A DNA stretch of 64,000 nt, from contig PCYM01000001.1 in assembly GCA_002774875.1 (NCBI GenBank), positions 1,096-65,095 of the forward strand. The letters run 5' to 3'. Under the pieces are notes generated by a model. The model worked only from the letters and a program-made list of their open reading frames with translations. It searched no databases and was not told the DNA's origin. The DNA comes from Candidatus Uhrbacteria bacterium CG10_big_fil_rev_8_21_14_0_10_50_16. GTDB taxonomy: Bacteria; Patescibacteriota; Patescibacteriia; UBA9934; UBA11717. Below are positions 22,506 to 39,312 of the stretch, one piece after another (position 1 is the first letter of the stretch; each line of letters begins with the position of its first letter). The position numbers were made by a program, and so were the translations under genes.

Positions 22506-25175
22506 ATGGCACACTTTTTAGATCGATTTTTAACGGATTCCAGTAAGAAAACACTCAAGTACTATCAACAGAGTGTGGATGCAGTCAATGCGCTTGCAGA
22601 CAGCTACCGTGGGTTATCGGATGCAGAGTTAAAGGAGAAAACCGTGAGTTTTAAAGCGCGCTTGGCGGAAGGCGTTTTGATTGACGATTTGCTCGTAGAG
22701 GCGTTTGCCACAGCCCGTGAAGCGGCACAGCGAACCTTGGGACAATATCATTACGATGTGCAGTTGTTGGGAGGGATGGCGCTGCATCATCACAACATTG
22801 CCGAGATGCGCACAGGAGAAGGAAAGACACTTACCTCAACACTCCCAGTTTATTTGAATGCATTGGAGGGAAAAGGTGTGCACGTGGCAACCGTTAACGA
22901 CTACCTGTCCATGCGAGATGCTGCATGGATGGGTGAAGTGTTTGATTTCCTGGGATTGTCCGTGGGAGTCATTTCTCACGAAGGTGGCTTTGTGTACGAC
23001 AAATCGATCGTGCAGGATGAAGTAGTGGAAGACGCCGATCGAGATGTTACGGGAAGTTTTAAAGTTCACCATGATTATTTGCGACCTGTGGCGCGTGCAG
23101 ATGCCTATGCGGCGGACATCACCTACGGCACCAACAATGAGTTCGGATTTGACTATCTGCGCGACAACATGGTGCAGAATCCGGATCAGCGCGTGCAACG
23201 TCCCCTTAACTATTGTTTGATTGACGAGGTGGACTCTATTTTGATTGACGAGGCACGCACGCCATTGATTATCTCTGCGCCGTCTCAAACGTCCAGTGCC
23301 ATGTACCAACAATTTGCACAGGTGGTGCGATTGTTAAAGTTGGACGTGGATTATAATATTGACGAGAAAATGAAAGTCTCTACACTTACGGAGGCTGGAA
23401 TTGAGAAAGTGGAGAAAGCTCTTGGTCTTGCAAACCTCTATGCCGACGGTGGTGTGCACTTGGTGCATCATTTGGAGCAGGCGCTGCGGGCGGAGGTGTT
23501 GTATAAGCGTGATAAAGAATACGTGGTACGCGAAGGAGAGATTGTGATTGTGGATGAATTTACGGGTCGTATGATGGAGGGACGTCGTTTTTCGGAAGGA
23601 CTCCATCAGGCGATCGAGGCGAAAGAAGGTGTGGAGGTACAACAAGAAAGTCAGACATTGGCCACCATTACGTTCCAAAACTATTTCCGCATGTATTCGC
23701 GATTGGCGGGCATGACGGGAACGGCCAAGACAGAGGAGGAAGAGTTTCAAAAGATTTATGATTTGAACGTGATCGTGATACCAACCAATAAGGTCATAGC
23801 CCGTAATGACCATGAAGACAAAATTTACAAGTCAGAGGCTGGTAAGATTCAGGCTATTGTAAAGGACGTTAAAACGCGGCAGGCCCTGGGGCAGCCAGTG
23901 CTCATTGGTACCATTTCTATTGAGAAGAACGAAGAGATGTCGCAGGCACTTTCCAAGGCGGGTGTGCCGCATGAGGCGTTGAACGCAAAAAACCACGAAC
24001 GAGAAGGGTCGATTGTTGCACAAGCAGGGCGCAAAGGTTCCGTGACGGTGGCCACCAACATGGCGGGTCGTGGTGTGGATATAAAGTTGGGAGGCGTTCC
24101 GGCAACAAAGCAAGAATATGAGGAAGTTCTCGCGTTAGGTGGTTTGTATGTGGTGGGAACGGAGCGTCACGAGGCACGTCGGATTGACAATCAGCTCCGT
24201 GGACGATCTGGCCGTCAGGGCGATGTTGGAGAAACGCAGTTCTTTGTATCGACCGAGGACGACCTTATGCGTGTGTTTGGATCTGATCGCATGAAGAACA
24301 TGATGGAGCGATTGGGCGTCCCTGAGGATATGCCGATTGAGAATAAAGTTATTACAAAAGCGTTGGAAGGGGCACAAAAGAAGGTGGAGGGTCACAACTT
24401 TGACATTCGCAAACGTTTGTTGGATTACGACGATATCCTCAATAAACAGCGTTCTGTGACCTATGAAATTCGTAACGAGATTGTAGACATTAATACAACG
24501 GAGGAGCCAGAGGCGGCACGTCCGATGATTTTGGATCACATTACGGAAGAGATCGAGAATGTTGTGTCGTTCCATACGGCAGACGGAACGGATTGGAATG
24601 TAAAGGAGATTTTTGAAACCATGCAGACCATTGTGCCGGTTCCGGAGGAGTTAAAGGAACGTTTTACGGCATATAATGGTATTGGTGCACCGAAGGCTGC
24701 GCAGGCCGCAGTGGTGCGCACGGAGTTGATTGAAACATTGGAGGGCCAGGCGCAGATAGCGTACAAGGATCTCGAGGGATTGTTTGCGGAGCGTTCCCAA
24801 CTTGCAACGGTGGAGAAGCAGTTGTTATTGCGATCGATCGACATGTTGTGGGTGGAACATCTAACCGCGATGCGTAAATTGCGCAGTGGTGTTGGGTTGA
24901 GTGGCTATGCACAGCGTGATCCGTTGGTGGAGTACAAGCGTGAGAGCTTTGCTATGTACCAGGTGATGCTGTCAGAGGTGCAAAAACAGGTGGTGTACTC
25001 CATTTTTAAGGTAAAGGATGCCATGCGGATTGCCCATACGCCGTCCTTGGCAGAGCGCGCAAAGATTAGCGAGGCTATAAAGGCAGGCGTGAGTAATCAT
25101 CAAAAACCAGGACGTAACGACGCGTGTCCGTGTGGATCGGGGAAGAAGTACAAAAAGTGCCATGGAATGGAATAA
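22506..25175 (+). CDS. secA: preprotein translocase ATPase SecA
   Basis: It has the DEAD-like motor motifs (MRTGEGKTLTSTLP, LIDEVDSILIDEARTPLIIS) and the C-terminal zinc finger CPCGSGKKYKKCHG. The start is taken at MAHFLDRFL. Confidence 0.9.
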   Translation: MAHFLDRFLTDSSKKTLKYYQQSVDAVNALADSYRGLSDAELKEKTVSFKARLAEGVLIDDLLVEAFATAREAAQRTLGQYHYDVQLLGGMALHHHNIAEMRTGEGKTLTSTLPVYLNALEGKGVHVATVNDYLSMRDAAWMGEVFDFLGLSVGVISHEGGFVYDKSIVQDEVVEDADRDVTGSFKVHHDYLRPVARADAYAADITYGTNNEFGFDYLRDNMVQNPDQRVQRPLNYCLIDEVDSILIDEARTPLIISAPSQTSSAMYQQFAQVVRLLKLDVDYNIDEKMKVSTLTEAGIEKVEKALGLANLYADGGVHLVHHLEQALRAEVLYKRDKEYVVREGEIVIVDEFTGRMMEGRRFSEGLHQAIEAKEGVEVQQESQTLATITFQNYFRMYSRLAGMTGTAKTEEEEFQKIYDLNVIVIPTNKVIARNDHEDKIYKSEAGKIQAIVKDVKTRQALGQPVLIGTISIEKNEEMSQALSKAGVPHEALNAKNHEREGSIVAQAGRKGSVTVATNMAGRGVDIKLGGVPATKQEYEEVLALGGLYVVGTERHEARRIDNQLRGRSGRQGDVGETQFFVSTEDDLMRVFGSDRMKNMMERLGVPEDMPIENKVITKALEGAQKKVEGHNFDIRKRLLDYDDILNKQRSVTYEIRNEIVDINTTEEPEAARPMILDHITEEIENVVSFHTADGTDWNVKEIFETMQTIVPVPEELKERFTAYNGIGAPKAAQAAVVRTELIETLEGQAQIAYKDLEGLFAERSQLATVEKQLLLRSIDMLWVEHLTAMRKLRSGVGLSGYAQRDPLVEYKRESFAMYQVMLSEVQKQVVYSIFKVKDAMRIAHTPSLAERAKISEAIKAGVSNHQKPGRNDACPCGSGKKYKKCHGME

Positions 25176-25179
25176 CCAA

Positions 25180-25207
25180 AAACCTCCCAATGCAGGGAGG
25201 TTTTTTA
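25180..25207 (+). terminator. rho-independent terminator after secA
   Basis: The sequence is AACCTCCC-AATGCA-GGGAGGTTTTTT. Confidence 0.55.
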
Positions 25208-25400
25208 ATAGGAACTAGGTGAGTTTTGGAATACTGATTTTAAGGACACCGTTTTCCACTACTGATGAGATGCCGGATGAATCATAATTATTTTCTGGAA
25301 GTTCGACAGATCATGAATTAAGAGTAGATCTATTGTAGTAGCATAGGTATAGATATTCAAACATTGCGGAGGATAACAGAAGATGATAGGTTGTGCATCT

Positions 25401-26012
25401 ATGAAGCTACTGATGTTTGATTTTGATGGGGTGATAGTGGCCTCTGCGGAGCCGTGTTTTGCGATCCACCAACAATTAGAGGGAGATCAACTGACGCGGG
25501 AAGTTTGGCGGACGTATTTTTACGGAAACGCGTTTGACTCTGAGCAGGTGAACATACATTATTCTGATGACCCGGTTGTTTCTGAGGAAAAACCCTTTTT
25601 TAAACTCTACAAACCGATTATTGAGACGATGGATCCTGTACCGGGGCTCAAGGAACTCGTCCACAACCTTGCACAGACGCACACGCTTACGATTGTCTCT
25701 TCCGGGTTTAGCGACATTATTCAGACCTTTTTAGAGCGGCATGGCCTGCGTTCGTATTTTCAGGAAGTTTGGGGCGCGGATATTCACAAAAAGAAAACGG
25801 TTAAAATACAGCGACTTCTCGATCAGTATCAAGTGACTCCTGATGAAGCGCGATTCATTACAGACACTCTTGGCGATGTAAAAGAGGCGCAAGAGGTTGG
25901 TACGGCATCTATTGGAGTTACGTGGGGCGTCCACACACGGGATATCCTCGCACTCGGGGCGCCGTTGTGTATTGTGGATACGATCGATGAACTTACCAAG
26001 ATTCTTTTGTAA
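25401..26012 (+). CDS. HAD-superfamily hydrolase (phosphatase-like)
   Basis: The motif I sequence MKLLMFDFDGVIV is present, and the size is typical of HAD phosphatases. Confidence 0.65.
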   Translation: MKLLMFDFDGVIVASAEPCFAIHQQLEGDQLTREVWRTYFYGNAFDSEQVNIHYSDDPVVSEEKPFFKLYKPIIETMDPVPGLKELVHNLAQTHTLTIVSSGFSDIIQTFLERHGLRSYFQEVWGADIHKKKTVKIQRLLDQYQVTPDEARFITDTLGDVKEAQEVGTASIGVTWGVHTRDILALGAPLCIVDTIDELTKILL

Positions 26013-26013
26013 T

Positions 26014-27288
26014 ATGGATCAATACGACGTCGTCATTGTTGGCGCGAGTTTTGCAGGTTTAACATTGGCGCATCATCTGCCAGGTCACCTGCGGGTTCTT
26101 GTTGTGGATGCAAAACCGGCGGCCGGATCTAGTGTTGAATCCACGGGGCTCATTACTTCAAAGACCTACGATTTGTTTAAAACGTTTTTCCCCATTGACG
26201 ACTACATCACCAATCCCATTTCGGCGATTTGTGTGGTAGCGCCGGATTTTAAGGATTACTTTGTGTCGCAAACGTCGGAACCTTGGATTTATCAAACCGA
26301 TACAAAGGCTCTCGTGCGTGCCATGGCCGATACCGTTCCATCAAACGTAACCGTTAAGACAAAAACGGTATTCATGAACGCGGTGGATGAGGATGATCAC
26401 GTTATTATTTCACTGCAAGCTCAAGGAGAGCCTTCTCACCAATTGAGGTGTCGAGTGCTTGTGGGCGCCGATGGTTCTCATTCCAAGGTTGCACAGGTGA
26501 CACCGGAGCTCGATCAGAACAAATCGTTTCTTTTTGGCTTTGAACGTGTGTATTTTGGAGAGGTGAATCTGGGACCGATTCCGCAGCAGACAATTTATCA
26601 CTATTGGTTTGGTGAATTTTCTTTGGGGTATGGCGGGTGGCTTTCGCCAACGGTTGTAAACGGACGCTCGGCGTATCGTATTGGCCTTGCAAAGCTGATG
26701 AGTGATCGAGGTGCGGCGAGTCAGTTGCTCAAGACGTTTACGCAGCGACTTGTCGACAACGGCACGATCACGCTCGAAGGGTCTATTGAGACGTCGGAAT
26801 ATGCGTTTGGGAGCTTGATTCCCATTGGTGGGGTTGTAAAACGTGTGACGCACAAAAATCGTGTGCTCATTGGAGATGCAGCAGGGTATTGCGGGGCGTT
26901 TGCTGCAGATGGTATTAAGGGGTCGTTGGCATCGGCAAAAATTGTTGCGCGGCTGATTCCACGATTTTTGGATGGAGAAACACAGGCACTGGTAGAACTG
27001 CCGGAGCGTATGAACACAGAATTTAATCTTATAGATTATTATCGTCGACAGATGCGTTACCGGTGGATCTGGGATCAAATGAGGCGTGACAGGTCATTTA
27101 AGGCAATGTTTGCCATTATCGCGCGGGAGCAGGAGACGTTCGTGGAACAATTCTGTGACAGTAAAGATACACACCGCAGTCTCGCCTGGACCGTGCTGAA
27201 ATTTAAATATCTTCCTCTTCTGGTGCAATATGGGTGTTTTCTGGTTTGGGACAAGTTATTTACACACAAAAAGACTGTCGTTGGTTGA
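26014..27288 (+). CDS. FAD-dependent oxidoreductase, geranylgeranyl reductase family
   Basis: YDVVIVGASFAGL (GxGxxG) is at the N-terminus, and VLIGDAAGYCGAFAADGIKGS is the GDAAG motif of this family. The start is at MDQYDV. Confidence 0.65.
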   Translation: MDQYDVVIVGASFAGLTLAHHLPGHLRVLVVDAKPAAGSSVESTGLITSKTYDLFKTFFPIDDYITNPISAICVVAPDFKDYFVSQTSEPWIYQTDTKALVRAMADTVPSNVTVKTKTVFMNAVDEDDHVIISLQAQGEPSHQLRCRVLVGADGSHSKVAQVTPELDQNKSFLFGFERVYFGEVNLGPIPQQTIYHYWFGEFSLGYGGWLSPTVVNGRSAYRIGLAKLMSDRGAASQLLKTFTQRLVDNGTITLEGSIETSEYAFGSLIPIGGVVKRVTHKNRVLIGDAAGYCGAFAADGIKGSLASAKIVARLIPRFLDGETQALVELPERMNTEFNLIDYYRRQMRYRWIWDQMRRDRSFKAMFAIIAREQETFVEQFCDSKDTHRSLAWTVLKFKYLPLLVQYGCFLVWDKLFTHKKTVVG

Positions 27289-27382
27289 TTAATCTCACCA
27301 GGGGCGTTACAATGGCGCCCGAGCTGTATTGGCGGGTAGAACCGCCTTCAATCCCCTCATTTCATTTTTTTATTCTGATTAC

Positions 27383-28867
27383 ATGGCTTACAAACAGTTT
27401 CGAAAACAGCAAAAGGAGGCTGGTAAACATAAGCAAATCAATGCTTCTGTACCATCAAAATGGCGATTACCTGTGGGTGTCATTGGGATCATTCTCCTTT
27501 CCGTTATTGGACTTGGGTACATGTTCCCAGCACAGTGGAATGCGACCGTTGGGAAGACTGGTTTGGAATTTAAGGGAACGCCGTTCCATCTAGGTCTTGA
27601 TTTGTTGGGGGGTGCGCATCTTGTGTATGAGGCAGATTTGTCTCAGGTGGGCGAGTCGGAACGTGCAGATGCATTGCGTGGTGTACGAGACGTTATTGAA
27701 CGTCGTGTCAATGCCTTTGGTGTTGCCGAGCCGGTTGTTCAATTAACGGGGGATACACGTATTATTGTTGAGCTCGCTGGAATTCAGGACGTGAATGAAG
27801 CGATTAACCAAATTGGAGAGACACCGATTTTGGAATTCAAACGGCCAGCTGCCGTGGACCCAGATGCACCAGATCCAATGGAGGGAATTACGGTATCAAC
27901 AGATGCAGACGGGAATGCGACGCTGGTGGGCACCGACGGCGAGCCTGTCGAGCTGACAAGTGAAATATTCGCTGCATTGCAAGGGAATAATCAGTGGGAA
28001 AATACGGAGTTAAGCGGTGCACATCTTAAACACGCATCCGTGGAGTTTGATTCAAACACAGGCACACCGTTGGTATCGCTCACGTTCGATTCCGAGGGCG
28101 GAGAAATGTTTGGGAAGTTGACAGAAGAATTGATTGGACAAAAGATCGCCATTTTCTTGGACGGTTCGGTTATTTCTGCGCCGGTTGTTCAGGATGCTAT
28201 TTACGGCGGTCAGGCGCAGATTACGGGAAGTGATTCTATCGAGGAGGCGCGAACACTCGCGCAACGGCTTAATGCAGGTGCGTTGCCGGTACCTATCGAA
28301 TTGATCTCTCAACAAACGGTAGGTCCAACACTAGGTGCTATCTCATTGGAGCGTAGCCTCATGGCGGGCGCCATTGGACTTGTCTTGATCGCTCTCTTTA
28401 TGCTGCTCTACTATCGGTTACCGGGGCTTCTTGCGATCGCCGCACTTGTTGTTTATGGAGTTCTTGTTCTGTCTGTCTTTAAAATGGGATCTGTGACATT
28501 AACACTTGCAGGAATCGCTGGTCTTATCCTTTCGATTGGAATGGCGGTGGATGCAAACGTACTCATTTTTGAGCGATTAAAAGAAGAATTAGCGTCTGGT
28601 CGGCCGCTTGATCGATCGATCGACGAAGCAGTAAAACGTGCCTGGTCTTCTATCCGCGACGGAAATATTACGACCCTTATTGCGTGTGTGATCCTTTTTG
28701 GCTTCAGTTCGAGTTTTATTAAGGGATTTGCGTTGACCTTGGGGATTGGAGTTGTGGCAAGTATGTTGACAGCCGTGGTGGTGACACGCGCATTTTTGGC
28801 GCTGGCAGCACGTTGGCCACTCCTCAATAAACCGTTTTTGTACGGGGTAAAAAAGATGCGAGAATAA
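27383..28867 (+). CDS. secD: protein-export membrane protein SecD
   Basis: It has LGLDLLGGAHLVYEAD, a periplasmic domain, and a C-terminal 6-TM region. The alternative upstream ATG at 27329 is also possible. Confidence 0.8.
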   Translation: MAYKQFRKQQKEAGKHKQINASVPSKWRLPVGVIGIILLSVIGLGYMFPAQWNATVGKTGLEFKGTPFHLGLDLLGGAHLVYEADLSQVGESERADALRGVRDVIERRVNAFGVAEPVVQLTGDTRIIVELAGIQDVNEAINQIGETPILEFKRPAAVDPDAPDPMEGITVSTDADGNATLVGTDGEPVELTSEIFAALQGNNQWENTELSGAHLKHASVEFDSNTGTPLVSLTFDSEGGEMFGKLTEELIGQKIAIFLDGSVISAPVVQDAIYGGQAQITGSDSIEEARTLAQRLNAGALPVPIELISQQTVGPTLGAISLERSLMAGAIGLVLIALFMLLYYRLPGLLAIAALVVYGVLVLSVFKMGSVTLTLAGIAGLILSIGMAVDANVLIFERLKEELASGRPLDRSIDEAVKRAWSSIRDGNITTLIACVILFGFSSSFIKGFALTLGIGVVASMLTAVVVTRAFLALAARWPLLNKPFLYGVKKMRE

Positions 28868-28870
28868 CCT

Positions 28871-29761
28871 ATGAAGATCATTCAACAACGAACCGTTTGG
28901 TTCAGTATTAGCGGAGGATTGATTCTTGCCAGTATCGCGTTCCTCGTGATATTTGGGCTTAATCTTGGAATCGATTTTACAGGAGGAAGCCTACTGGAAG
29001 TGGAATATGCACAGGATCGGGCAGATATTACGGATATTCGTACAGCTGTCGAAACTGCTGGTTTTACAAGCGGCCAGGTACAGCCAAGTAATGAACGCGG
29101 ATTACTTGTGCGTCAACCTCCGCTCACGGAAGATCAACATCAGGTACTCATGGGGACATTGTTGACATTTGGAGAATTGGATGAATTGCGATTTGACTCT
29201 ATTGGCCCTGTTATTGGACAGGAGTTGAAGCAAAAATCCCTGTGGGCACTCGTTCTCATTTTCGTGGCGATTGTGGCCTATGTGGCTTGGTCATTCCGTA
29301 AGGTGGGAAGCAAAGTAAAAAGTTGGAAGTATGGATTTTTGACGATTGTTGCAGCACTCCATGATGTGCTTATCGCATTGGGTGTCGCGGCGCTTCTTGG
29401 TCATTTTATGGATTTCTCGATTGGGACGGCGTTTGTGGCGGCGTTGTTGACGATTCTTGGATACTCGGTAAACGATACAATTGTGGTATTTGATCGAATC
29501 CGCGAGAACCTCATGAAAGATCATCACACGTTCGAAGCCGTTGTGGATCAGTCTGTGAATGAGACGATCGCCCGTTCGATCAATACAAGCTTAACCACCC
29601 TACTCGCGTTGTTCGCGGTGTACCTATTTGGTGGGGAAACAACAAAAGATTTTGCCTTAATTCTCATGGTGGGAATCTTTGTGGGAGCCTATTCGTCGAT
29701 CTTCATTGCGTCACCGTTACTGGTAACGTGGCAAAAGTGGATGGATAGAAAGCGTTCTTAG
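28871..29761 (+). CDS. secF: protein-export membrane protein SecF
   Basis: GIDFTGGSLLEVEY and the C-terminal TM bundle match SecF. It starts 3 nt after secD. Confidence 0.85.
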   Translation: MKIIQQRTVWFSISGGLILASIAFLVIFGLNLGIDFTGGSLLEVEYAQDRADITDIRTAVETAGFTSGQVQPSNERGLLVRQPPLTEDQHQVLMGTLLTFGELDELRFDSIGPVIGQELKQKSLWALVLIFVAIVAYVAWSFRKVGSKVKSWKYGFLTIVAALHDVLIALGVAALLGHFMDFSIGTAFVAALLTILGYSVNDTIVVFDRIRENLMKDHHTFEAVVDQSVNETIARSINTSLTTLLALFAVYLFGGETTKDFALILMVGIFVGAYSSIFIASPLLVTWQKWMDRKRS

Positions 29762-29774
29762 TGCGTGTGTAGAT

Positions 29775-29805
29775 GAACGAGGTCGCAGAGACCTCGTTTT
29801 GTTTT
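29775..29805 (+). terminator. rho-independent terminator after secF
   Basis: The sequence is AACGAGGTC-GCAGA-GACCTCGTTTTGTTTT. Confidence 0.55.
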
Positions 29806-29872
29806 GTGGTGTGTGTAAGTAGGATTAGAAGCAGCAGACAGGGAAAGACAACGTGGTATACTGGTCTCATCT

Positions 29873-31414
29873 ATGTTTGAAATTGTGACTGATTTTTCGT
29901 CTTTGCAACGCATGGCGGTGACGCGGCCCGACGTGCTACTTTTGTATATCCTGATGCCAATTGGCGCGTTACTTATTTTAACGACGATTGTATGGGTGAT
30001 TAAGCAATTGTATTTGGATAAAAAAGGAGGAGAATACGCCGCCGGACTTAAGTGGTCTGTTTTGGCAATCGACATTCCAATGAACATGCAGTCGCCAAAA
30101 GCGGTGGAAAACATCTTTGCGATTGTTAAGGGAACAAAGTCCGTGGTTACAAAGAAAGAGGAGTGGCTGCATGGGAAATTTCTCACGGCGACAAGTTTTG
30201 AAATCGTGAGTATCGATGGCTATACACAATTCTTTTTGCGCACGCAGGCGCGGTTCCGTGATCATTTGGAAGCCGGAATTTACTCGCAATATCCGGAGGC
30301 GGAGATTTCCGAGGTGGAGGATTATACAAAGAATATTCCAGGTGATTTTCCAAACGAGACACATGAAATGTTTGGAGGGGAGATTATTTTGGAGGAGCCG
30401 AGCTATTTGCCGATTCGTACTTACGAAGATTTTGAGCACATGGCGAGCAAGGATGAAAAACTCAAGGATCCACTCAATCAAATGTTTGAGTTCATGGGAA
30501 AGTTGCGACCAGGAGAGCAGTTCTGGGTTCATCTGATTGTGCACCCAGGTGGCGACGGCGGGTGGTCTAAAAAGGGAGAAGATTTTATTTTAAAAACCTA
30601 TGGACGAGATAAGCCGGAAGCGGTCTCCACGGGCTCTGTATTGTTAAAGTTGTTGTTCTCGCCATTTGGTTGGATCATCAAAGAAGCGGCAACACAACTA
30701 GGCGCAGGCGTTTTTGAAGCGGGAGAGGCTGCAAAGCCTGAACGTCCAATGTTTTTTGTGCCGACGAACACAGAAAAAACCCAGCTTGATGGTGTGACCA
30801 AAAAACTCGCAAAACCAGGGTATGAATGTAAGATTCGTTGGGCCTATGTGTCACGGCACGAGACGTACAATAAGGGTGGTCGTAACACGCTTTGGAAAGG
30901 GTACCTCGCATTGTTTACGCATCCAGCGATGAATAAGTTTAAATACGATGCAGACACCATGCCACGTGACGATTATTTTTGGATGATTTGGGAGTATCGA
31001 CGTAAGCAACGAGAACTCATGGAAGCCCTAAAGGGTCGTAGCTGGGGTCATGGAAGTACGCCAATGTATTTGAATGTGGAGGAATTAGCGACCCTGTGGC
31101 ACTTCCCAACAATCGAATCACATGCACCTCTTATGGCGCGTACGGAGTCTAAACGATCCGAGGCGCCAACCTATTTGCCAAAACCTGGCGTTGGGGAATC
31201 GGAAGATTTGCCATCTGAGGAGTTGATCGAGGTTGATGAGCAAGGAAGACCCGTTGCAAGACCTGTTGATGTCGGCGCAATTTACAATAACGATCTTGCG
31301 GATATTTTGCCCACCGAGCCCATGATTGAACCTGGAGATGAGAATCAACCTCGCGACACGGATGAGACCTATGGAGAGGAGCAACCGTTTATCCCGCCCA
31401 ACCTTCCTGTGTAA
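29873..31414 (+). CDS. hypothetical protein with a single N-terminal TM anchor and a large soluble domain of unknown function
   Basis: The hydrophobic segment is LLLYILMPIGALLILTTIVWVI. The roughly 470 aa soluble part carries no motif I recognise, and its C-terminus is acidic. The gene lies 33 nt upstream of the T4CP-like ATPase on the same strand. Confidence 0.5.
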   Translation: MFEIVTDFSSLQRMAVTRPDVLLLYILMPIGALLILTTIVWVIKQLYLDKKGGEYAAGLKWSVLAIDIPMNMQSPKAVENIFAIVKGTKSVVTKKEEWLHGKFLTATSFEIVSIDGYTQFFLRTQARFRDHLEAGIYSQYPEAEISEVEDYTKNIPGDFPNETHEMFGGEIILEEPSYLPIRTYEDFEHMASKDEKLKDPLNQMFEFMGKLRPGEQFWVHLIVHPGGDGGWSKKGEDFILKTYGRDKPEAVSTGSVLLKLLFSPFGWIIKEAATQLGAGVFEAGEAAKPERPMFFVPTNTEKTQLDGVTKKLAKPGYECKIRWAYVSRHETYNKGGRNTLWKGYLALFTHPAMNKFKYDADTMPRDDYFWMIWEYRRKQRELMEALKGRSWGHGSTPMYLNVEELATLWHFPTIESHAPLMARTESKRSEAPTYLPKPGVGESEDLPSEELIEVDEQGRPVARPVDVGAIYNNDLADILPTEPMIEPGDENQPRDTDETYGEEQPFIPPNLPV

Positions 31415-31447
31415 TTATTGACCGCACGTCCTTAACCGTCTACCTCT

Positions 31448-33535
31448 ATGGCTCGTATCCACGACCATGAAAATGAAATCACCTACTTCGCTAAAACCAA
31501 CTTTCGACAAGGTGGTCAGAAGTTTGGGATTAAAACGGACGATCGACGCCGGCACATGTATATTGTTGGAAAAACCGGTGCTGGTAAAACAACACTTTTG
31601 GAGAACATGGTGTTGCAAGACATTTATAACGGGCACGGGATTTGCTATGTGGATCCGCATGGAGATACGGTGGAGCGTATTCTTGATTTTATTCCAAGCT
31701 GGCGTTTGAATGATGTTGTGTACTTTAACCCGGCGGATTTGGATTTTCCGGTTGGGTTTAACGTGTTAGATGAAGTGTCTGGAAGCCACAAACATCTTGT
31801 CGCCTCTGGTTTGATGAGTGTGTTTAAGAAGATTTGGGAGAACATGTGGTCGGCTCGTATGGAGTATATTCTGGGCAATACGATTTTAGCCTTGTTGGAT
31901 ACCCCAGGCTCTACGTTGTTGGGTATTAACCGTATGTATTCCGATCCGGACTATCGAAGGTCCATTATTGAAAATATCAAGGACCCTGTGGTCAAACAGT
32001 TCTGGGTCATGGAGTATGCGGCATATTCAGAGAAATTTGCAACAGAGGCGGTGGCGGCCGTGCAAAACAAGGTAGGTCAGTTTTTGTCGTCCGACGTGAT
32101 TCGCAATATCGTTGCACAGGTTAAATCGACGATTGACGTGCGAGAAATCATGGATTCGCAGAAAATTTTGCTGGTCAACTTGTCTAAGGGGCGTATTGGA
32201 GAGGATAATTCGCGTTTGCTTGGCGGAATGTTGATCAATAAGGTACAGCTAGCGGCCATGGAACGTGTGGACATGCCAGAGAAAGATCGAAAAGATTTCT
32301 ATTTGTACGTAGATGAGTTTCAAAACTTTGCAACGGAATCATTCGCCGGAATTTTGTCCGAGGCGCGTAAATATCGACTCAATCTAATCGTCGCACACCA
32401 ATATATTGCACAGTTAACGGAGGAGGTACGAGATGCCGTGTTGGGTAACGTTGGCACGATGACGGTGTTTCGTGTGGGTGCACCAGACGCGCAGGAGCTA
32501 GAGACAGAATTCATGCCACGATTTACGCCGGAGGATATTATTAACCTGCCAAAATACCAAGTGTATTTAAAATTGATGATCGACGGAATGGCGTCTCCTC
32601 CATTCTCTGCGACCACGCTTCCGCCGATCGCACAGAATACGGGATCAGAAGCAAAAGTTATACGGATGAGTCGTGAGCGTTATTCGGCTGATCGGTCTGA
32701 GGTGGAGGCTGGTGTGATTAAATGGACTGGTTTGGAGGATGCAGATATTGATCAACTCATGGACCAGGCAAAGGCAAAAGGGTCCGGAAATCAGGCGAAG
32801 GTCAAACATAAATACAAATGTTCTTGGACAGGAAAAGAGTTTTCGATTCCAGTGAAGTTGGATCGCGGACGGCCAATTTACAGTGAGGAAGGAAAAGAGA
32901 TGGTGCGAGCGGCCAAGAAGGACGGTACATACGATCCTCGCAAGGATATTATTTACAGTGATACTCTGGAGCCCATCGGATCGGTTGCAGAATTGGGAAC
33001 GGATGGTTTGTGGGCGGTACGCAATGAGGAAGGGGACATTATTGGTCGCAAAGATGAGGATAGTACAAAACGCGATCGTAGGGCGGCTAAGGAGACCGAA
33101 AAACAGGAGTTAGAAGTAAAACTTGCTAAGGCGCGTGAGGAAATGAAGGAGTCTGGAGCACCAGCGGCGAGTGTAGAGGTAGCACCGACTCCAAAACCTG
33201 CAAACGTAGAGTCTCCAAAAGTGGAGCGTCCTGCACCGCGCCTACAGGAAGAGGTAAAGTCTGTCGTTGGGGCCTCGTTGAATGTTCTCAAGCAAGAAGG
33301 TGAGCGGCGTGAGGGCGAGAAGCGTAAACGCAGAAGGAAAAAGCCAACACAAGATGGAGGAGGCGATCGTGGAGGTTCTCGATCACGTTCCAATCCATCG
33401 AGGTCGACAGACACACCCAGAGATCAGCAACCCGTCATACGACAGCCGGCTGCAGATGTTCAACCAAAAACAGAGCCAGATACAAAGGCAAGGCCTATTA
33501 AACCTGGTGAGATGATCACGTTTGGGGAGGAATAA
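31448..33535 (+). CDS. type IV coupling protein (VirD4/TraG/TraD)-like P-loop ATPase, lacking a TM anchor, with a long KE/RGG-rich low-complexity tail
   Basis: It has Walker A (YIVGKTGAGKTT), a DEF-type Walker B (FYLYVDEFQNFAT), and a conserved LIVAHQYIAQL block as in T4CP NTP-binding domains. The C-terminal 260 aa are Lys/Glu/Arg/Gly-rich. Confidence 0.6.
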   Translation: MARIHDHENEITYFAKTNFRQGGQKFGIKTDDRRRHMYIVGKTGAGKTTLLENMVLQDIYNGHGICYVDPHGDTVERILDFIPSWRLNDVVYFNPADLDFPVGFNVLDEVSGSHKHLVASGLMSVFKKIWENMWSARMEYILGNTILALLDTPGSTLLGINRMYSDPDYRRSIIENIKDPVVKQFWVMEYAAYSEKFATEAVAAVQNKVGQFLSSDVIRNIVAQVKSTIDVREIMDSQKILLVNLSKGRIGEDNSRLLGGMLINKVQLAAMERVDMPEKDRKDFYLYVDEFQNFATESFAGILSEARKYRLNLIVAHQYIAQLTEEVRDAVLGNVGTMTVFRVGAPDAQELETEFMPRFTPEDIINLPKYQVYLKLMIDGMASPPFSATTLPPIAQNTGSEAKVIRMSRERYSADRSEVEAGVIKWTGLEDADIDQLMDQAKAKGSGNQAKVKHKYKCSWTGKEFSIPVKLDRGRPIYSEEGKEMVRAAKKDGTYDPRKDIIYSDTLEPIGSVAELGTDGLWAVRNEEGDIIGRKDEDSTKRDRRAAKETEKQELEVKLAKAREEMKESGAPAASVEVAPTPKPANVESPKVERPAPRLQEEVKSVVGASLNVLKQEGERREGEKRKRRRKKPTQDGGGDRGGSRSRSNPSRSTDTPRDQQPVIRQPAADVQPKTEPDTKARPIKPGEMITFGEE

Positions 33536-33588
33536 CTCGTCGGTTGCACCTTGATTCATAAGGGTAACCGTGCTAGGTTGGCAACGAT

Positions 33589-34671
33589 ATGCAGGACTCC
33601 CCCAGGAAAATCTTAGTGGCAATGAGCGGTGGCGTCGATTCGTCGGTGGCCGCTGCGTTGCTTTTGGAACAGGGGCATGAGGTGGTGGGGGCGTTTATGA
33701 AAAATTGGAGCGGATGTGATTGGGAGACGGACAAACGAGATGCACAGCGTGTGGCGGCAGGTCTGGGAATTGATTTTTATGTCTACGACTTTGAGAAAGA
33801 ATACCGGGAGCGTGTGTATGAATACATGATTGCCGAGTATGCGGCAGGCCGCACACCAAATCCGGATGTGATGTGTAACCGTGAGGTAAAGTTTGACTTA
33901 CTTATGAATGTGGCAGACGCGTTGGGATGTAGTCAGCTGGCAACTGGCCATTATGCACGCATTCGCACGGAGGGGGAGACTATTGAATTATTAAAGGGTG
34001 TTGATTCCAATAAAGATCAATCGTATTTTTTATGTCGGTTGGGTCAGAAGGAATTGCGTCGAGCCGTATTCCCTGTGGGCGAGCTCACCAAATCGGAGGT
34101 GCGCCGCATTGCGCAGAAATATCACCTTGCAACTGCGGAGAAAAAAGATAGCCAGGGGCTTTGTTTTGTTGGGATGGTGGATATGCAAACGTTTTTAAAG
34201 GAGCGAATCCCTACGCAGACGGGACCGATTGTGACCACAGACGGAGAGGTGATTGGAGAACATGAAGGGATTCAATACTATACGATTGGGCAGCGACATG
34301 GATTGGGTGTTGGTGGCGGTGAGCCGTGGTATGTGGTGGATCGACGATTGGAGACGAATGAATTGGTAGTGGGACATGAGGACGATCCGGCGTTGCTCGC
34401 ACGAGAGATTCATGCGATGGATGTCCATTGGGTTTCTGGGGCAGAGCCGGTGTTTCCAGTTATCTGCCAGGCAAAAATTCGCTATCGGCAAGAGGATCAG
34501 TTGTGCACGGTTACGCCGATACAAGGAGATTACGTAGATGAGAAGGGGAATGTGGATCGGCAGGCGACGTTAAACATTCAATTTGATCAAGCACAGCGGG
34601 CTGTGGCACCGGGGCAGTTTGTTGTTTTTTACCACCAAGACGTCCTCATTGGCAGCGCGGTGGCTGTGTAA
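33589..34671 (+). CDS. mnmA: tRNA-specific 2-thiouridylase
   Basis: The PP-loop (KILVAMSGGVDSSVAA) and the rest of the MnmA architecture are present. Confidence 0.85.
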   Translation: MQDSPRKILVAMSGGVDSSVAAALLLEQGHEVVGAFMKNWSGCDWETDKRDAQRVAAGLGIDFYVYDFEKEYRERVYEYMIAEYAAGRTPNPDVMCNREVKFDLLMNVADALGCSQLATGHYARIRTEGETIELLKGVDSNKDQSYFLCRLGQKELRRAVFPVGELTKSEVRRIAQKYHLATAEKKDSQGLCFVGMVDMQTFLKERIPTQTGPIVTTDGEVIGEHEGIQYYTIGQRHGLGVGGGEPWYVVDRRLETNELVVGHEDDPALLAREIHAMDVHWVSGAEPVFPVICQAKIRYRQEDQLCTVTPIQGDYVDEKGNVDRQATLNIQFDQAQRAVAPGQFVVFYHQDVLIGSAVAV

Positions 34672-35090
34672 TAACAGTACAATTACACGAGATAGGAAAT
34701 AAAAACACCAAGAGCGGCACCCGAAGGCCCGCTCAAGAGGAGGTGTGGAACGCTCGTCACCTGCTAAACTATCACCAAAAAAGCACTTATCCCGGTATAT
34801 TGGGCCGGGTACCCTATGTGATTTTGTCAATTTATATGTCCGTCTCTCGCTGGCCCCTTGGGGACATGGAGACAATTGCCGAGCGGGCACAAACGCGCCA
34901 AAGCTCGGGAAGACAGGTGCGAGGGTGGTTGTTCCAAGACCACCACGAGCGTTCCACGAAGAAAGACTATCAAAAAGTCCTCATATTGTCAATAGTTTGC
35001 CTCTTTGGAGGAAATTGGAAAAGGAAGAGAATGAAGTACAGGGTAAATACTCGACAAATAGGGGAAATAGCGCTAGTATCGGGTTATTCT

Positions 35091-36884
35091 ATGGATCAAT
35101 CACACATCCGCAACTTTTGCATTATCGCCCATATTGACCACGGAAAGTCGACCCTCGCGGATCGGCTTTTAGAGTTAACGGGCACATTGGACAAACGACA
35201 GCTCAAAGAACAGACCCTGGACACCATGGACTTGGAGCGAGAGCGGGGGATTACCATTAAGTTACAACCGGCTCGGATGAAGCACACCAAAGATGGTGTG
35301 GAGTACACGTTGAATCTCATTGACACACCGGGGCATGTGGATTTTGCTTACGAGGTTTCTCGATCGCTTGCCGCTGTGGAGGGATGTATTTTGTTGGTCG
35401 ATGCCACACAGGGTGTGCAGGCGCAAACACTTGCAAACTTATATATGGCAATTGAGGCGGGGTTGGAGGTGATTCCGGTGCTCAATAAAATCGACTTGCC
35501 GGCGGCAGACGTGGCAAGTCGTAGCGAGGAACTGAAACAACTCATTGGCTGCACACGAGAAGATATTTTGACAGTCTCCGGAAAAACAGGTGAGGGCGTT
35601 GCAGCGCTGTTGGATCGCCTGGTGGAGAAGGTGCCTATGCCCAAAGGTGACACAAACGCCGAACCACGCGCGATGATTTTTGATTCGTTCTACGACGATT
35701 ATCAAGGCGTGGTGGCCTACGTGCGTGTGGTGGATGGCGCCTTTAAAAAAGGACAGCAAATGAAGATGGTTGCCACAGAAGTTGTGACGCCGATTGCAGA
35801 GCTTGGACACATTTCTCCACAACGTATCCCTGACGCCGACCTCACGACGGGGCAAATTGGCTATATAGTAACTGGGTTAAAAGATATTGTGAGCTGTCGC
35901 GTTGGAGATACGATCACCTTGCCGGGTACGCACGTAACGCCGTTGCCGGGTTACAAAGAGGTGCGACCAATGGTGTTTGCTGGTATTTTTCCGCGCGATG
36001 GAGGTGATGTTACGGAATTGCGTGAGGGTATGGAAAAGTTGCAGTTGTCCGATGCGTCTCTTACAGTGGAGCCGGAGCAATCTGGGGCGCTTGGTGTTGG
36101 ATTCCGTTGTGGTTTGCTTGGCATGTTGCATTTGGAAATTGTGCAGGAACGCCTCATGCGGGAGTCGGATGTGGACGTGGTGGTTACAACGCCGAGTGTG
36201 CGATACCGTGTGCAAAAATCCAATGGTGAGGAACTGATTATTAAGAGTCCGCTCGATCTTCCGGATCCAAGTCAGATTGCACAGGTTTTTGAGCCTTGGG
36301 CGCGTGTGGATATTGTGGTGCCAACGGAGCGCATTGGAGCCGTCATGGCGCTTGTGCAGGACAGACGTGGAATTTACAAAACCACGGAATACCTGGATCA
36401 GCACCGAGCGCTTTTGCATTACGAAATGGCGTTGTCGGCGGTGATTGTAGATTTTTATGATGCGCTTAAAACGGCAACGAGTGGCTACGGATCCATGAGC
36501 TACGAGGCGTTTGACGAGCGTCCGGCAGATGTGGTGCGTATGGATATTTTTGTGGCGGAAGACCCTGTGGAGGCGCTTTCCACACTAGTGTATCGAGATC
36601 AAGCGCATGAGGTTGGAAAGAAAATTATTCATACACTTAAAAATGAGATACCACGTCAGCAGTTTGTGATAAAATTGCAGGCGATGATAGGAGGTGCCAT
36701 TATTGCAGGGGATCGTATTTCGGCCATGCGTAAAGACGTGACGGCCAAGCTTTATGGCGGAGACGTCACGCGAAAACGTAAATTGCTCGAGAAACAAAAA
36801 AAGGGAAAGAAGAAAATGGCTGCCTTGGGACATGGAAAAGTGGAAATCCCCGCCAGTGCCTATTTAAAAGTATTAAAGCGATAA
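35091..36884 (+). CDS. lepA: elongation factor 4 (LepA)
   Basis: IRNFCIIAHIDHGKSTLADRL is the G1 motif, and the DTPGHVDF and LepA-specific C-terminal domains follow. The start is at MDQSHIRNF. The track ORF extends in-frame upstream to 34743, and I judge that part to be non-coding leader. Confidence 0.85.
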   Translation: MDQSHIRNFCIIAHIDHGKSTLADRLLELTGTLDKRQLKEQTLDTMDLERERGITIKLQPARMKHTKDGVEYTLNLIDTPGHVDFAYEVSRSLAAVEGCILLVDATQGVQAQTLANLYMAIEAGLEVIPVLNKIDLPAADVASRSEELKQLIGCTREDILTVSGKTGEGVAALLDRLVEKVPMPKGDTNAEPRAMIFDSFYDDYQGVVAYVRVVDGAFKKGQQMKMVATEVVTPIAELGHISPQRIPDADLTTGQIGYIVTGLKDIVSCRVGDTITLPGTHVTPLPGYKEVRPMVFAGIFPRDGGDVTELREGMEKLQLSDASLTVEPEQSGALGVGFRCGLLGMLHLEIVQERLMRESDVDVVVTTPSVRYRVQKSNGEELIIKSPLDLPDPSQIAQVFEPWARVDIVVPTERIGAVMALVQDRRGIYKTTEYLDQHRALLHYEMALSAVIVDFYDALKTATSGYGSMSYEAFDERPADVVRMDIFVAEDPVEALSTLVYRDQAHEVGKKIIHTLKNEIPRQQFVIKLQAMIGGAIIAGDRISAMRKDVTAKLYGGDVTRKRKLLEKQKKGKKKMAALGHGKVEIPASAYLKVLKR

Positions 36885-36886
36885 GT

Positions 36887-37396
36887 ATGTCTTATTGGAT
36901 AAGTCGATCATTTCTATATTCGATCGTTATTTTGCTTGTCGTGCTGGGTATTGGTTGTGTGTTCCAAGTTGTGGATACGGGCAATGATCTCACGGATCTA
37001 TCGGTGATTACGGATCCCCCTCTACAAGGAACTTCTGATCAAATAACGGGTGTTCTGGTGAACATTGGCTTTAGTGGAACAGAAATTGGATGTGATCTTG
37101 CAGAGTCGGACCCAGTGGGAACACGCCGTTCTTGCAATACGGGTGTTGTGCATCTTGGGTTAGAGGAGTCTACGGGTCGCGTGGTTGATTTGGACGGAGT
37201 GAGTTGCTCTGGACAGGAAGTATTGGTACGTACAGAAGAAGGTGTACAAATGGAGTATGAGACTACAAATTGCGCCTATCAAATTGGTGACCGCTATCAG
37301 GTTGAGGGTAAAATGGGTCAATTATTGGATCAATGGGACCACGGAACGCAAGTAGAAGAATACATTATGTATAATCCTATAATAACCTCATTGTAA
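36887..37396 (+). CDS. hypothetical lipoprotein
   Basis: The signal peptide has a lipobox (VVLGIGC), and the mature domain is Cys-containing. Confidence 0.4.
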   Translation: MSYWISRSFLYSIVILLVVLGIGCVFQVVDTGNDLTDLSVITDPPLQGTSDQITGVLVNIGFSGTEIGCDLAESDPVGTRRSCNTGVVHLGLEESTGRVVDLDGVSCSGQEVLVRTEEGVQMEYETTNCAYQIGDRYQVEGKMGQLLDQWDHGTQVEEYIMYNPIITSL

Positions 37397-37528
37397 TATG
37401 TACAAAAGCAAGTGGCTTAAGCGCGTGTTTGCTATCATCTCTTTTGTTGTGATTTTAAGCATGGTTGGATTTACCATCGCGATTGGATTTTAGTAGGGTG
37501 GGTGTGGCTTAGTTGTGAATGATTTTGT

Positions 37529-39271
37529 ATGAAGAAACAAACAGCGACGTGGAATCTTCATACGCCGGTGGAGGAAGATGCCTTGCGACAATTTCCAGAA
37601 TTGGATCCCGTGTTGATGCAATTATTGTGGAATCGTGGTATCCGATCACAAGAGGAAATTTATGCGTTTTTTAATCCTGATTATGGAACCGATCTCCATG
37701 ATCCGTTTTTGTTTCGACAAATGAAGAGTGTCGTAAAGCGTATTTACCAGGCGTTGGAGAAAGGGGAAACGATTGTGATTCACGGAGATTATGATGCAGA
37801 CGGGATCTGTGGAACGGCCGTACTCGTGACAGCCATTAAAGAAATTTGTCGTCGTACGGGTATAAAGGCATTTGAGGAGGAGCGGGTACGTTGGTATCTA
37901 CCATCGCGAGAAGGAGATGGGTACGGAATGAGCTACGCAGCGGTAGAGACGTTTAAGGAGATGGAGGTGAACCTTATTATTACGGTTGATTGCGGGATTG
38001 CAAACGTGGATGAGATTGCGCTTGCGTATGCCTTTGGAATGGAGGTGATTGTGGTGGATCATCACCAGTTACCGCAAACCTGTTCTGAGCTTGCGCTCAC
38101 GGTGCACCCGTTGGTGCCAGGAGAAACTTATCCATTCAAGAAACTCGCGGCGGTGGGCGTGGCCTTTAAGGTTGCCTGCGCACTTTATGCGCACGGAAGA
38201 TCCAGGAAGGCGCCAATTCCTTTGGGGTTAGAAAAATGGTTGCTGGATCTTGTGTCCATCGCAACGGTCACAGATATGGTTCCATTGACGGGCGAAAATC
38301 GTTTATTGGAGACGTATGGATTAATGGTGCTAAATAAAAGTAAACGTGTTGGATTGCTTGCGCTCATGAACGCCGCAGGGCTGACACAGGGGAAGCTTAC
38401 GACCACGGATATTGGATTTAGAATTGGGCCAAGACTTAATGCAGCTGGCAGAATTGCAAAGGCAGACGTGGCATTGGAACTTATGCTCGAGGAAGACGAG
38501 TCGCGTGCAGACGCATTGGCAGAACAGCTGAATCAAATCAATACCGAGCGACAAAAGCTTACAGAACAGTCCACAAAGCGTGCCTTGGAGATGGTGGACA
38601 CCGAGGCCGCATTTATTGCGGTTGTGGATCATGAAACACGCGTAGGCGTTGCAGGACTTGTCGCTGGAAAGCTTGCGCAACAGCTTGGAAAGCCGTCGGT
38701 GGTCATGACACGCGTAGGTGTGCATGTGGTGGGATCGGGTCGTGCGCCCTCGGGGTTCCAATTTGTGCAGGCGATGGATACGTGTCGAGAACTCATGGTA
38801 GGGGGTGGAGGACATCCGGAGGCGTGTGGATTTACGCTTTTGGAACCGCAGATTTCCGCGTGGGTGAAGGCGATGAACATATTTGCAGCCGAACATGCAA
38901 CGGACGACGCAGGGAAAACAATCTTGGACGTGGACGCAGAGTTGGAGCTATCGGATGTTACCTGGGAACTTGTTGAGCGTGTGTCTGCCATGGAACCACA
39001 CGGTATGGGCAATCCAACGCCAACGTTTTTGGCTTCTGGTGTGCAGGTGATCGCGGCAGAAACGGTCGGTAAAACACAATCACATTTACGATTAAGTGTC
39101 GCCACAAGCACTCGCAGTATTAGGTCCTGTATTGGGTTTGGATGGGGATGGTTGGCGGAAGACCTGACGATGGGTGATACAATAGACTTGGTTTATGAGA
39201 TTGGCGTCAATGAATGGAATGGGAATCGAGAGATTCAACTACAGATCGTGGACATTCAAAAGGTGTCATGA
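37529..39271 (+). CDS. recJ: single-stranded-DNA-specific exonuclease RecJ
   Basis: DHH motifs are present (VIHGDYDADGICG, DHHQ), along with a DHHA1 region and an OB-fold C-terminus. Confidence 0.85.
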   Translation: MKKQTATWNLHTPVEEDALRQFPELDPVLMQLLWNRGIRSQEEIYAFFNPDYGTDLHDPFLFRQMKSVVKRIYQALEKGETIVIHGDYDADGICGTAVLVTAIKEICRRTGIKAFEEERVRWYLPSREGDGYGMSYAAVETFKEMEVNLIITVDCGIANVDEIALAYAFGMEVIVVDHHQLPQTCSELALTVHPLVPGETYPFKKLAAVGVAFKVACALYAHGRSRKAPIPLGLEKWLLDLVSIATVTDMVPLTGENRLLETYGLMVLNKSKRVGLLALMNAAGLTQGKLTTTDIGFRIGPRLNAAGRIAKADVALELMLEEDESRADALAEQLNQINTERQKLTEQSTKRALEMVDTEAAFIAVVDHETRVGVAGLVAGKLAQQLGKPSVVMTRVGVHVVGSGRAPSGFQFVQAMDTCRELMVGGGGHPEACGFTLLEPQISAWVKAMNIFAAEHATDDAGKTILDVDAELELSDVTWELVERVSAMEPHGMGNPTPTFLASGVQVIAAETVGKTQSHLRLSVATSTRSIRSCIGFGWGWLAEDLTMGDTIDLVYEIGVNEWNGNREIQLQIVDIQKVS

Positions 39272-39312
39272 GGTTGTTGATCCAATAATTTTGATCATTG
39301 GTAAACGTTTGT

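Follow-up and report, generated by a model that had tools for sequence, protein, structure and literature searches.

A probable split type IV coupling protein encoded by a conserved core gene pair of Patescibacteria

INTRODUCTION

Type IV coupling proteins (T4CPs) of the TrwB/VirD4/DotL type (PF10412, PF02534) share a nucleotide-binding domain with Walker A and B motifs, an all-alpha insertion, and an AHQ block, and they carry an N-terminal transmembrane (TM) anchor within the same polypeptide. [quoted passage not shown] Gene 1 encodes a DUF8128 (PF26449) protein with a TM helix, and gene 2 encodes an ATPase whose nucleotide-binding domain has all of the elements listed above. The ATPase differs from the described T4CPs in having no TM segment of its own, no relaxase or type IV secretion system (T4SS) genes beside it, and a long basic extension derived from a zinc ribbon, and it is far better conserved than the products of the neighboring genes, SecD, SecF, and MnmA.

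Anchoring of a T4CP in trans has a precedent in the Enterococcus plasmid pIP501, where TraI is the proposed membrane tether of the TM-less ATPase TraJ (PMC12857230). The likeness of the two anchors is one of layout: TraI is a small two-TM protein, as opposed to the 400-residue domain of DUF8128, and the pIP501 system is plasmid-borne and conjugative. Another comparable architecture is that of archaeal CedB and CedD, which combine a TM segment, a domain resembling the VirB4 N-terminal domain (NTD), and an FtsK/HerA-superfamily ATPase, and which serve DNA import rather than export (PMC11868833). The Ced proteins are single chains, and their ATPases belong to the HerA/VirB4 clade, not to the T4CP clade.

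In Patescibacteria themselves, a recent survey of 3,035 genomes (Quinonero-Coronel et al. 2025, PMC12102498) reports 5,713 T4CP homologues in 2,918 genomes (96%), only 148 of them near virB4, together with chromosomal VirB4-based T4SSs in 2,417 genomes (approximately 80%) and few relaxases. These orphan T4CPs are very probably the same genes as gene 2. The available text does not mention a DUF8128 partner or a split, and it is also silent on fused relatives, synteny with secDF, the domains of the tail, and how strongly the genes are conserved. An essential T4SS locus without a recognizable coupling protein has been reported from Southlakia (Wang et al. 2023, PMC10633639).

RESULTS

Class of the ATPase

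An original prediction, made without database searches, had proposed gene 2 as a T4CP-like ATPase because of its Walker A motif, DEF-type Walker B motif, and Q-containing block, and had suggested that the protein encoded immediately upstream could supply the membrane anchor that the ATPase lacks. All of these motifs are present (Table 1). The gene 2 product has no hydrophobic N-terminal segment, with only 36 residues ahead of Walker A, and gene 1, which ends 33 nt upstream on the same strand and in the same frame, encodes a protein with a single N-terminal TM helix. The UniRef name of the gene 2 product is [quoted passage not shown]

Regarding protein families, the ATPase matched Pfam TrwB_AAD_bind (E value, 1.4e-9; aa 30 to 346), T4SS-DNA_transf (2.6e-7), and TraG-D_C (9e-5), with weaker matches to DUF87/HerA (6.6e-5, barely at the cutoff), FtsK_SpoIIIE (0.029, P-loop only), and AAA_10 (0.041). 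The best NCBIfam matches were TraD/TrbC/CD1115 coupling protein models, accompanied by a weak CedD match on the P-loop region, and the best PDB sequence matches were DotL and TrwB. In hhalign comparisons, a profile of 35 ATPase relatives aligned with TrwB over 262 columns (probability, 94%; E value, 1e-7), running through the all-alpha domain, whereas only the P-loop aligned with the VirB4 protein TrwK (probability, 2.7%); the match to pSK41 TrsK, a CD1115-type T4CP, was weak. As judged from sequence, the ATPase is thus closer to TrwB/TraD-type T4CPs than to pSK41 TrsK. A Foldseek search with the AlphaFold2 (AF2) model (pLDDT, 73; pTM, 0.78) placed DotL first (1.2e-9), followed by 27 TrwB chains, and lower-ranked structural neighbors included HerA (9e-8), DndH-C, TdpAB, Cagbeta, and VirB4 (9e-6).

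The P-loop domain is therefore closest to T4CPs by both sequence and fold, the all-alpha insertion is present, and the one T4CP feature missing from gene 2 is a TM anchor within the same polypeptide. T4CPs also lead over HerA and FtsK, the two classes against which the prediction was to be judged, by Pfam, PDB sequence, and Foldseek. A VirB4 assignment was rejected on the P-loop-only alignment with TrwK and the AAA_10 E value, and an FtsK/SpoIIIE assignment on the P-loop-only Pfam match and the absence of FtsK among the 50 Foldseek matches listed. HerA was rejected on the marginal DUF87 match and on an N-terminal region too short for a HAS-barrel; its fold rank below the T4CPs and the absence of a nuclease among the neighboring genes also disfavor it. 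We conclude that the gene 2 product is an ATPase of the TrwB/VirD4 coupling protein type and not of the VirB4, FtsK, or HerA type.

The DUF8128 protein

The UniRef name of the gene 1 product is "DUF8128 domain-containing protein," and the precomputed Pfam annotation also assigns PF26449 to this exact protein. The family comprises 1,486 clusters at 50% identity. The AF2 model (pLDDT, 74.7) consists of a long TM helix, an alpha/beta domain, and a disordered, acidic, proline-rich tail. Given that lysines follow the TM helix, the large DUF8128 domain is probably cytoplasmic (positive-inside rule). In approximately 58 of 68 DUF8128 relatives, the motif NLP[VILF] forms the C-terminal end.

The top 13 matches of the DUF8128 model in a Foldseek search of the PDB were all TrwK/VirB4 chains of R388 (E value, 3.5e-4 to 4e-2; probability, up to 1.0; approximately 440 to 460 aligned columns), at TM-scores of only approximately 0.3, and the matches below them were noise from small ferredoxin-like domains. 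Searches of PDB sequences with DUF8128 profiles returned nothing, even at an E value of 10, and hhalign comparisons were negative against TrwK, pSK41 TrsE (VirB4), pSK41 TrsD, and a VirB4-like protein from Embleya. For TrsD, an MPF-FATA accessory protein of pSK41/pGO1, the probability was 0.3%, with low power because the target was a single sequence. A resemblance of DUF8128 to the VirB4 NTD, for which the link is by Foldseek alone, is suggestive only; at that same strength, it would fit the CedB/CedD architecture (PMC11868833).

Fused and split homologues outside Patescibacteria

The two parts occur as one chain elsewhere. In a T4CP encoded on an Embleya plasmid (WP_331738717.1; 812 aa), the C-terminal half matches the window ATPase (32% identity; E value, 5e-59), and residues 78 to 398 align to the DUF8128 profile (probability, 83%; E value, 9e-6), including ...PELAALAHLP.... 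A database search with the N-terminal half of this protein returned many single chains from Actinomycetota that combine PF26449 with PF10412, PF01935, or PF12696. On a replicon of Priestia (Bacillota), one open reading frame (ORF) continues from a DUF8128 domain (probability, 98%) into the beginning of the ATPase, the remainder being frameshifted. A split form was found on a Halorussus limi plasmid, where the gene for a 376-aa DUF8128 protein (WP_248653158.1 and WP_248653266.1 are the two products; probability, 96%; E value, 2e-9) lies directly 5' of, and overlaps the start of, a gene for a 1007-aa T4CP-like ATPase.

Because anchor and motor form one chain in Actinomycetota and Priestia and the same split recurs in haloarchaea, we regard it as very likely that the Uhrbacteria pair is a split DUF8128-type T4CP, with gene 1 as the missing anchor half, as had been proposed. 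The Embleya and Priestia fusions have the same order of parts (TM segment, DUF8128 ending in ELAxLxHxP, and T4CP ATPase) and an ATPase identity of 32 to 38%, but they are single polypeptides borne on plasmids or elements. The Actinomycetota fusion loci also differ in their surroundings; the Embleya gene lies beside genes for PrgI/VirB3-like, VirB4-like ATPase, TrbL/VirB6-like, relaxase-like, and NlpC/P60 (cell wall hydrolase) proteins. Neither a zinc ribbon nor a basic tail is present in the Embleya protein. The Halorussus pair differs in being plasmid-borne and in its ATPase, which is approximately 28% identical and has another C-terminal extension; a second T4CP-like paralogue lies nearby.

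The Priestia sequence belongs to Priestia megaterium pFDU301A (NZ_CP045273.1; L085:4771-8409), a 1.08-Mb "plasmid" record with one annotated feature, in which the DUF8128-T4CP fusion is apparently broken by frameshifts and the local GC content is 33.5%. The closest match to the ATPase domain outside Patescibacteria (39% identity; E value, 2e-94) is a 395-aa ATPase-only protein (L081:7986-9173) on Sulfitobacter mediterraneus plasmid NZ_CP081110.1, a non-mobilizable alphaproteobacterial plasmid; the gene lies beside transposases, with no DUF8128 annotated nearby.

Linkage and conservation in Patescibacteria

Scanning a single genome from each species gave at least 555 loci that contain a relative of DUF8128, and the following details are from the best 80 of these. 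All 80 were on contigs of Patescibacteria type (Uhr-, Falkow-, Komeili-, and Buchananbacteria and others). The two genes stay together in relatives, a point on which the proposed partnership depended: an ATPase gene lies directly 3' of the DUF8128 gene on the same strand in 61 of the 69 loci with enough downstream sequence. The gap is mostly -17 to +60 nt, with many 4-nt overlaps, consistent with coupled translation. Most loci have secD-secF 5' of the pair, and mnmA is often 3'. In eight Falkowbacteria-like loci, the DUF8128 gene has no ATPase gene nearby.

The median identity across loci was highest for the ATPase domain (68%), followed by SecD (57.5%), MnmA (50%), SecF (49.5%), and DUF8128 (38%). 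The ATPase domain was more conserved than SecF in all 51 loci compared and more conserved than MnmA in 22 of 22. As the best conserved protein of its neighborhood, it behaves as a core gene product and not as the T4CP of a mobile element. The GC content of the pair (0.465 to 0.495) is like that of the rest of the window, no att-like direct repeats stand out around it in a repeat search, no integrase, tRNA, or relaxase gene was found flanking it, and a scan of viral contigs returned no relatives. These results, with the recurring core synteny, agree with the earlier view that the locus does not represent a classical conjugative element. Rather than mobile-element cargo, the two genes are a very strongly conserved pair of the core genome.

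Several contigs with the secD-secF-DUF8128-ATPase order (L001, L002, L005, L018, L035, L066, and others) are titled "uncultured Gammaproteobacteria," "Kapaibacterium," "Binatia," or "Acutalibacteraceae," probably as placeholders or through misbinning. The eight loci without the ATPase (L059, L061, L064, L067, L075, L076, L077, and L079; approximately 6000-7450) share another conserved neighborhood, with a glycosyltransferase-like gene 3'. In one Patescibacteria metagenome-assembled genome (MAG), a second, tail-less ATPase paralogue (L025:9831-11243; 470 aa), which shares 42% identity with the ATPase domain of the window protein, is encoded directly 3' of the main ATPase. This fits the approximately two T4CP homologues per genome in the literature.

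C-terminal extension of the ATPase

The last 260 or so residues of the ATPase had been described as an RGG/KE-rich, low-complexity tail. That description holds for residues ~540 to 684, the only part that is K/E/R/P-rich and of low complexity; it does not hold for residues 456 to 482, which are a degenerate zinc ribbon, for residues ~483 to 540, which are conserved in the closest relatives, or for the C-terminal motif. Most Uhrbacteria relatives have an intact CxxC-x17-CxxC zinc ribbon directly after the ATPase domain, and some have a second one. TIGR04272 matches two relatives, P0149 and P0232, of which only P0149 clears the cutoff (41 bits versus 36). In the subclade of the window protein, three of the cysteines are replaced while the surrounding residues stay conserved. 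The same subclade has gained a conserved segment of approximately 60 residues after the module (YDPRKDIIY...GSVAELG.DGLWA).

The pair thus carries two conserved terminal peptides on flexible linkers, PPNLPV on the anchor and PG[EQ]xIxF on the motor. In one ATPase subclade, PG[EQ]xIxF is replaced by D[VI]FPW. The two types of C-terminal motif do not covary among the relatives' loci, and neither occurs in any other ORF of the window. The zinc ribbon and basic extension are absent from the conjugative Embleya homologue.

DISCUSSION

Proposed function

The explanation that we favor, with a probability of roughly 0.6, is that the pair forms one T4CP made in two pieces, with the resident T4SS as its probable partner and nucleic acid as its probable substrate. 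The gene 1 product would be a single-pass anchor that places the cytoplasmic DUF8128 domain under the membrane, and the motor is predicted to assemble with it at the cytoplasmic membrane face. By analogy with TrwB, the ATPase may form a hexameric ring on the anchor; a polymer would be driven through this ring by ATP hydrolysis, to or from an envelope-spanning channel. The zinc ribbon and basic tail may bind nucleic acid or nucleoprotein or recruit cargo. The most likely channel would be the chromosomal VirB4-based T4SS encoded elsewhere in most Patescibacteria. Taken separately, cooperation of the pair with the resident T4SS has about even odds, and we would put a nucleic acid substrate at one chance in two. 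Given that relaxases are mostly absent from Patescibacteria, the job of the pair would not be classical conjugation.

The original prediction favored a stand-alone DNA or protein translocation device. This proposal is so far not supported, considering how widely VirB4-based T4SSs are reported in the survey; because those T4SSs are so common and T4CP genes usually lie far from them, a complete T4SS elsewhere in the genome that uses this ATPase is likely.

Several observations weigh against a split T4CP that works with the T4SS on nucleic acid. None of the scanned ORFs of the window encodes VirB4, VirB6, a relaxase, an integrase, or another T4SS protein, which the original prediction had already noted for VirB4 and conjugation genes. 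In the survey (PMC12102498), T4CP homologues are commoner than VirB4 (96% versus 80% of genomes), and the T4SS genes of Southlakia are essential but its T4CP homologue is not, which speaks against an obligate partnership. So does the finding of VirB4 in two of the three CG10 Uhrbacteria assemblies compared and not in the third. The zinc ribbon module of the window protein itself retains one of four cysteines (YKCSWTG...IYSEEG) and has no TIGR04272 profile match. The hexamer, the ATPase activity, and the nucleic acid binding are features that we infer.

Alternative explanations

A T4SS-independent role is a serious rival because T4CPs outnumber VirB4, the Southlakia T4CP is dispensable, and the CG10 assemblies are mixed for VirB4. 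Under this explanation, which corresponds to the stand-alone device of the original prediction, the same split T4CP-type motor was exapted to work by itself, docked at the membrane, as a translocase that takes up or exports DNA or RNA. Its partner could be a different envelope channel or a type IV pilus/competence apparatus. The authors of the survey raise exaptation themselves, and the survey also gives the counts that favor it (2,918 genomes with T4CP homologues, 2,417 with VirB4, and 148 homologues near virB4). An ATPase domain conserved at or above the housekeeping level, in fixed synteny with core genes and with a zinc ribbon and basic extension that the conjugative Embleya homologue lacks, is also what exaptation would lead one to expect, and CedD, with its TM segment, VirB4-NTD-like domain, and ATPase needed only for DNA import, provides a precedent (PMC11868833). 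However, no gene for an alternative channel adjoins the pair in approximately 70 loci, MAG incompleteness could explain part of the difference between T4CP and VirB4 counts, and the informative loci inspected outside Patescibacteria (Embleya and probably Priestia) are of T4SS type. We rate exaptation as a possibility of roughly one in four.

The layout of an anchor, a long disordered linker, and a ring ATPase of the FtsK-HerA superfamily, with core status and high conservation, also recalls FtsK, and the pair might act at division as a DNA pump anchored in the membrane, clearing or segregating chromosomes, its motor and anchor being separate polypeptides. The ATPase has no gamma (KOPS-binding) domain, and the P-loop-only Pfam match and the Foldseek matches described above point away from FtsK, so that this function is improbable. 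A role in defense, as mad8 of MADS or beside a nuclease in the manner of HerA or DndH, is more doubtful still and is largely refuted by the context of the pair. The best profile score was indeed that of PADLOC mad8 (66.5 bits; E value, 7e-19), HerA gave weak matches, and HerA, DndH-C, and TdpAB are structural neighbors; because the alignments behind the MADS profiles were derived with HHpred by searching the PDB, mad8 probably acts as a generic T4CP-like profile. No methyltransferase, kinase, nuclease, or other defense gene adjoins the pair here or in approximately 70 related loci, the conserved core synteny is unlike that of defense islands, and the membrane protein that accompanies the ATPase shares homology with the N terminus of T4SS coupling proteins. 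Membership in MADS, an eight-gene operon with a methyltransferase, a specificity subunit, and a kinase, was rejected, with no other mad gene nearby. Finally, homologues outside Patescibacteria sit on plasmids or in conjugative loci, as they would if the pair had been left behind by an integrated conjugative element or plasmid. Such a remnant is very hard to reconcile with a position between secDF and housekeeping genes that recurs in dozens of species, with strong purifying selection, and with the normal GC content and the lack of repeats, integrase, tRNA, relaxase, and viral-contig relatives reported above, and it is the explanation to which we give the least credence. Recent acquisition of the pair is refuted; an ancient transfer from monoderm conjugative systems is plausible and is compatible with the split T4CP that we favor.

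Novelty and significance

Orphan VirD4-type T4CP homologues in Patescibacteria have been published, as has DUF8128 as a Pfam family of unknown function; our literature searches found no mention of PF26449/DUF8128. In the literature searched, we did not find DUF8128 recognized, in a class of T4CPs from monoderms and archaea, as their N-terminal half, the Patescibacteria pair described as a split DUF8128-T4CP, or its secDF-linked core synteny. The same applies to the above-housekeeping conservation of the motor, the zinc ribbon and basic tail, and the terminal motifs.

Patescibacteria account for a large share of bacterial diversity, cannot make nucleotides, and live on other cells. In the only species where it has been tested, the T4SS was essential, its cargo and coupling protein being unknown, and direct uptake of host RNA by Patescibacteria has been reported, with an unknown route (2026 preprint, 10.64898/2026.06.21.733656). 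The pair is a concrete, near-universal candidate component, with a constrained T4CP-type motor, a putative nucleic acid-binding tail, and a dedicated anchor. It offers a function-linked annotation for DUF8128, a domain in >1,400 sequence clusters, and it links Patescibacteria T4CPs to those of actinomycetes and Priestia and to the T4CP-like ATPases of haloarchaeal plasmids, in parallel with the published picture for VirB4. It also supplies testable hypotheses on the contact between anchor and motor, on docking by the C-terminal motifs, and on RNA or DNA binding, with a possible link to nucleic acid acquisition by epibionts.

Two further-reaching scenarios are together a long shot. In one, a conjugation-type coupling ATPase would have been captured early in Patescibacteria, split from its VirB4-NTD-like anchor, and fitted with a tail that binds nucleic acid, and it would now be a near-universal housekeeping motor that imports host RNA or DNA through the T4SS or another channel. 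In the other, DUF8128 would be a true VirB4 NTD, and this T4CP class would retain, at full length, the architecture of the ancestor shared by VirB4 and VirD4. If the import scenario were true, the pair would fill the place of the missing importer in the nucleotide-scavenging, "RNA-feeding" lifestyle.

FEATURES OF THE LOCUS AND ITS NEIGHBORHOOD

The coordinates of all features are given in Table 1.

Table 1. Features of the gene pair and of its upstream region (positions in the window)
Feature	Position	Strand	Residues	Description and evidence
Gene 1, DUF8128 (PF26449) protein	29873..31414	+	513 aa	Membrane-anchor half; family assignment and homology
TM helix (LLLYILMPIGALLILTTIVWVI)	29936..30001	+	aa 22-43	Single helix; hydrophobicity, AF2 model
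Alpha/beta globular domain	30050..31108	+	aa ~60-412	AF2 pLDDT mostly 80-95, conserved columns
ELATLWHFP motif	31082-31108	+		Family-wide, at end of alpha/beta domain; conserved columns
Acidic, proline-rich disordered linker	31130..31393	+	aa ~420-507	pLDDT <50; E 16%, P 12%, D 9%
C-terminal motif PPNLPV	31394..31411	+		Conserved; relatives' alignment
Gene 2, TM-less TrwB/VirD4-type ATPase	31448..33535	+	695 aa	With C-terminal extension
Walker A GKTGAGKT	31568..31591	+	aa 41-48	Sequence, alignment
All-alpha insertion in nucleotide-binding domain	31781..32155	+	aa ~112-236	AF2 helices; TrwB hhalign runs through; Pfam TrwB_AAD_bind
Walker B region FYLYVDEFQNF	32297..32329	+	aa 284-294	Sequence, alignment
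VAHQYIAQL block	32390..32416	+	aa 315-323	Conserved; sequence, alignment, hhalign
Degenerate CxxC-x17-CxxC zinc ribbon module (YKCSWTGKEFSIPVKLDRGRPIYSEEG)	32813..32893	+	aa 456-482	Alignment, relatives' TIGR04272 matches
Basic patch EKRKRRRKK, then Gly/Arg/Ser stretch (GGGDRGGSRSRS)	33317..33391	+		Conserved; alignment
C-terminal motif KPGEMITFGEE	33500..33532	+		Conserved, family PG[EQ]xIxF; alignment
Terminator-like hairpin	29775..29799	+		10-bp stem, then T run; directly 3' of secF stop codon
Promoter-like site	29835..29862	+		CAGACA, 16-nt spacer, TG-TATACT; ends 10 nt before gene 1 ATG

The hairpin probably separates secDF from the pair. The promoter-like site is a consensus match only, and such sites are not above the shuffled expectation in this region. 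With the hairpin after secF and the promoter-like site before gene 1, the pair has the appearance of its own two-gene unit.

Pfam searches of the neighboring ORFs confirmed the position between secDF and mnmA that had been given for the pair: SecA, a HAD hydrolase, an FAD enzyme, SecD, and SecF are encoded 5', and MnmA, LepA, and RecJ are encoded 3'. The remaining housekeeping genes of the window encode TGT, ClpB, DnaB, SHMT, Mur enzymes, LigA, GatA, Lgt, DnaG, and sigma-70.

Type IV pilus genes lie 6 to 10 kb 3' of the pair (PilM-like, 39793..40953; prepilin peptidase, 43811..44584), and the two ORFs between them (41709..42200 and 42429..43721) have no Pfam match. The GC content is 0.586 in the bin at 42001-44000, compared with approximately 0.48 elsewhere in the window. 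The product of 1295..5266 (1323 aa), which may be exposed at the cell surface, matches Pfam only through a single bacterial Ig-like (Big_5) domain. Every 2-kb bin of the window (1..64000) has a positive GC skew, and almost all of the long ORFs are encoded on the + strand; the whole window is probably leading-strand sequence of a single replichore.

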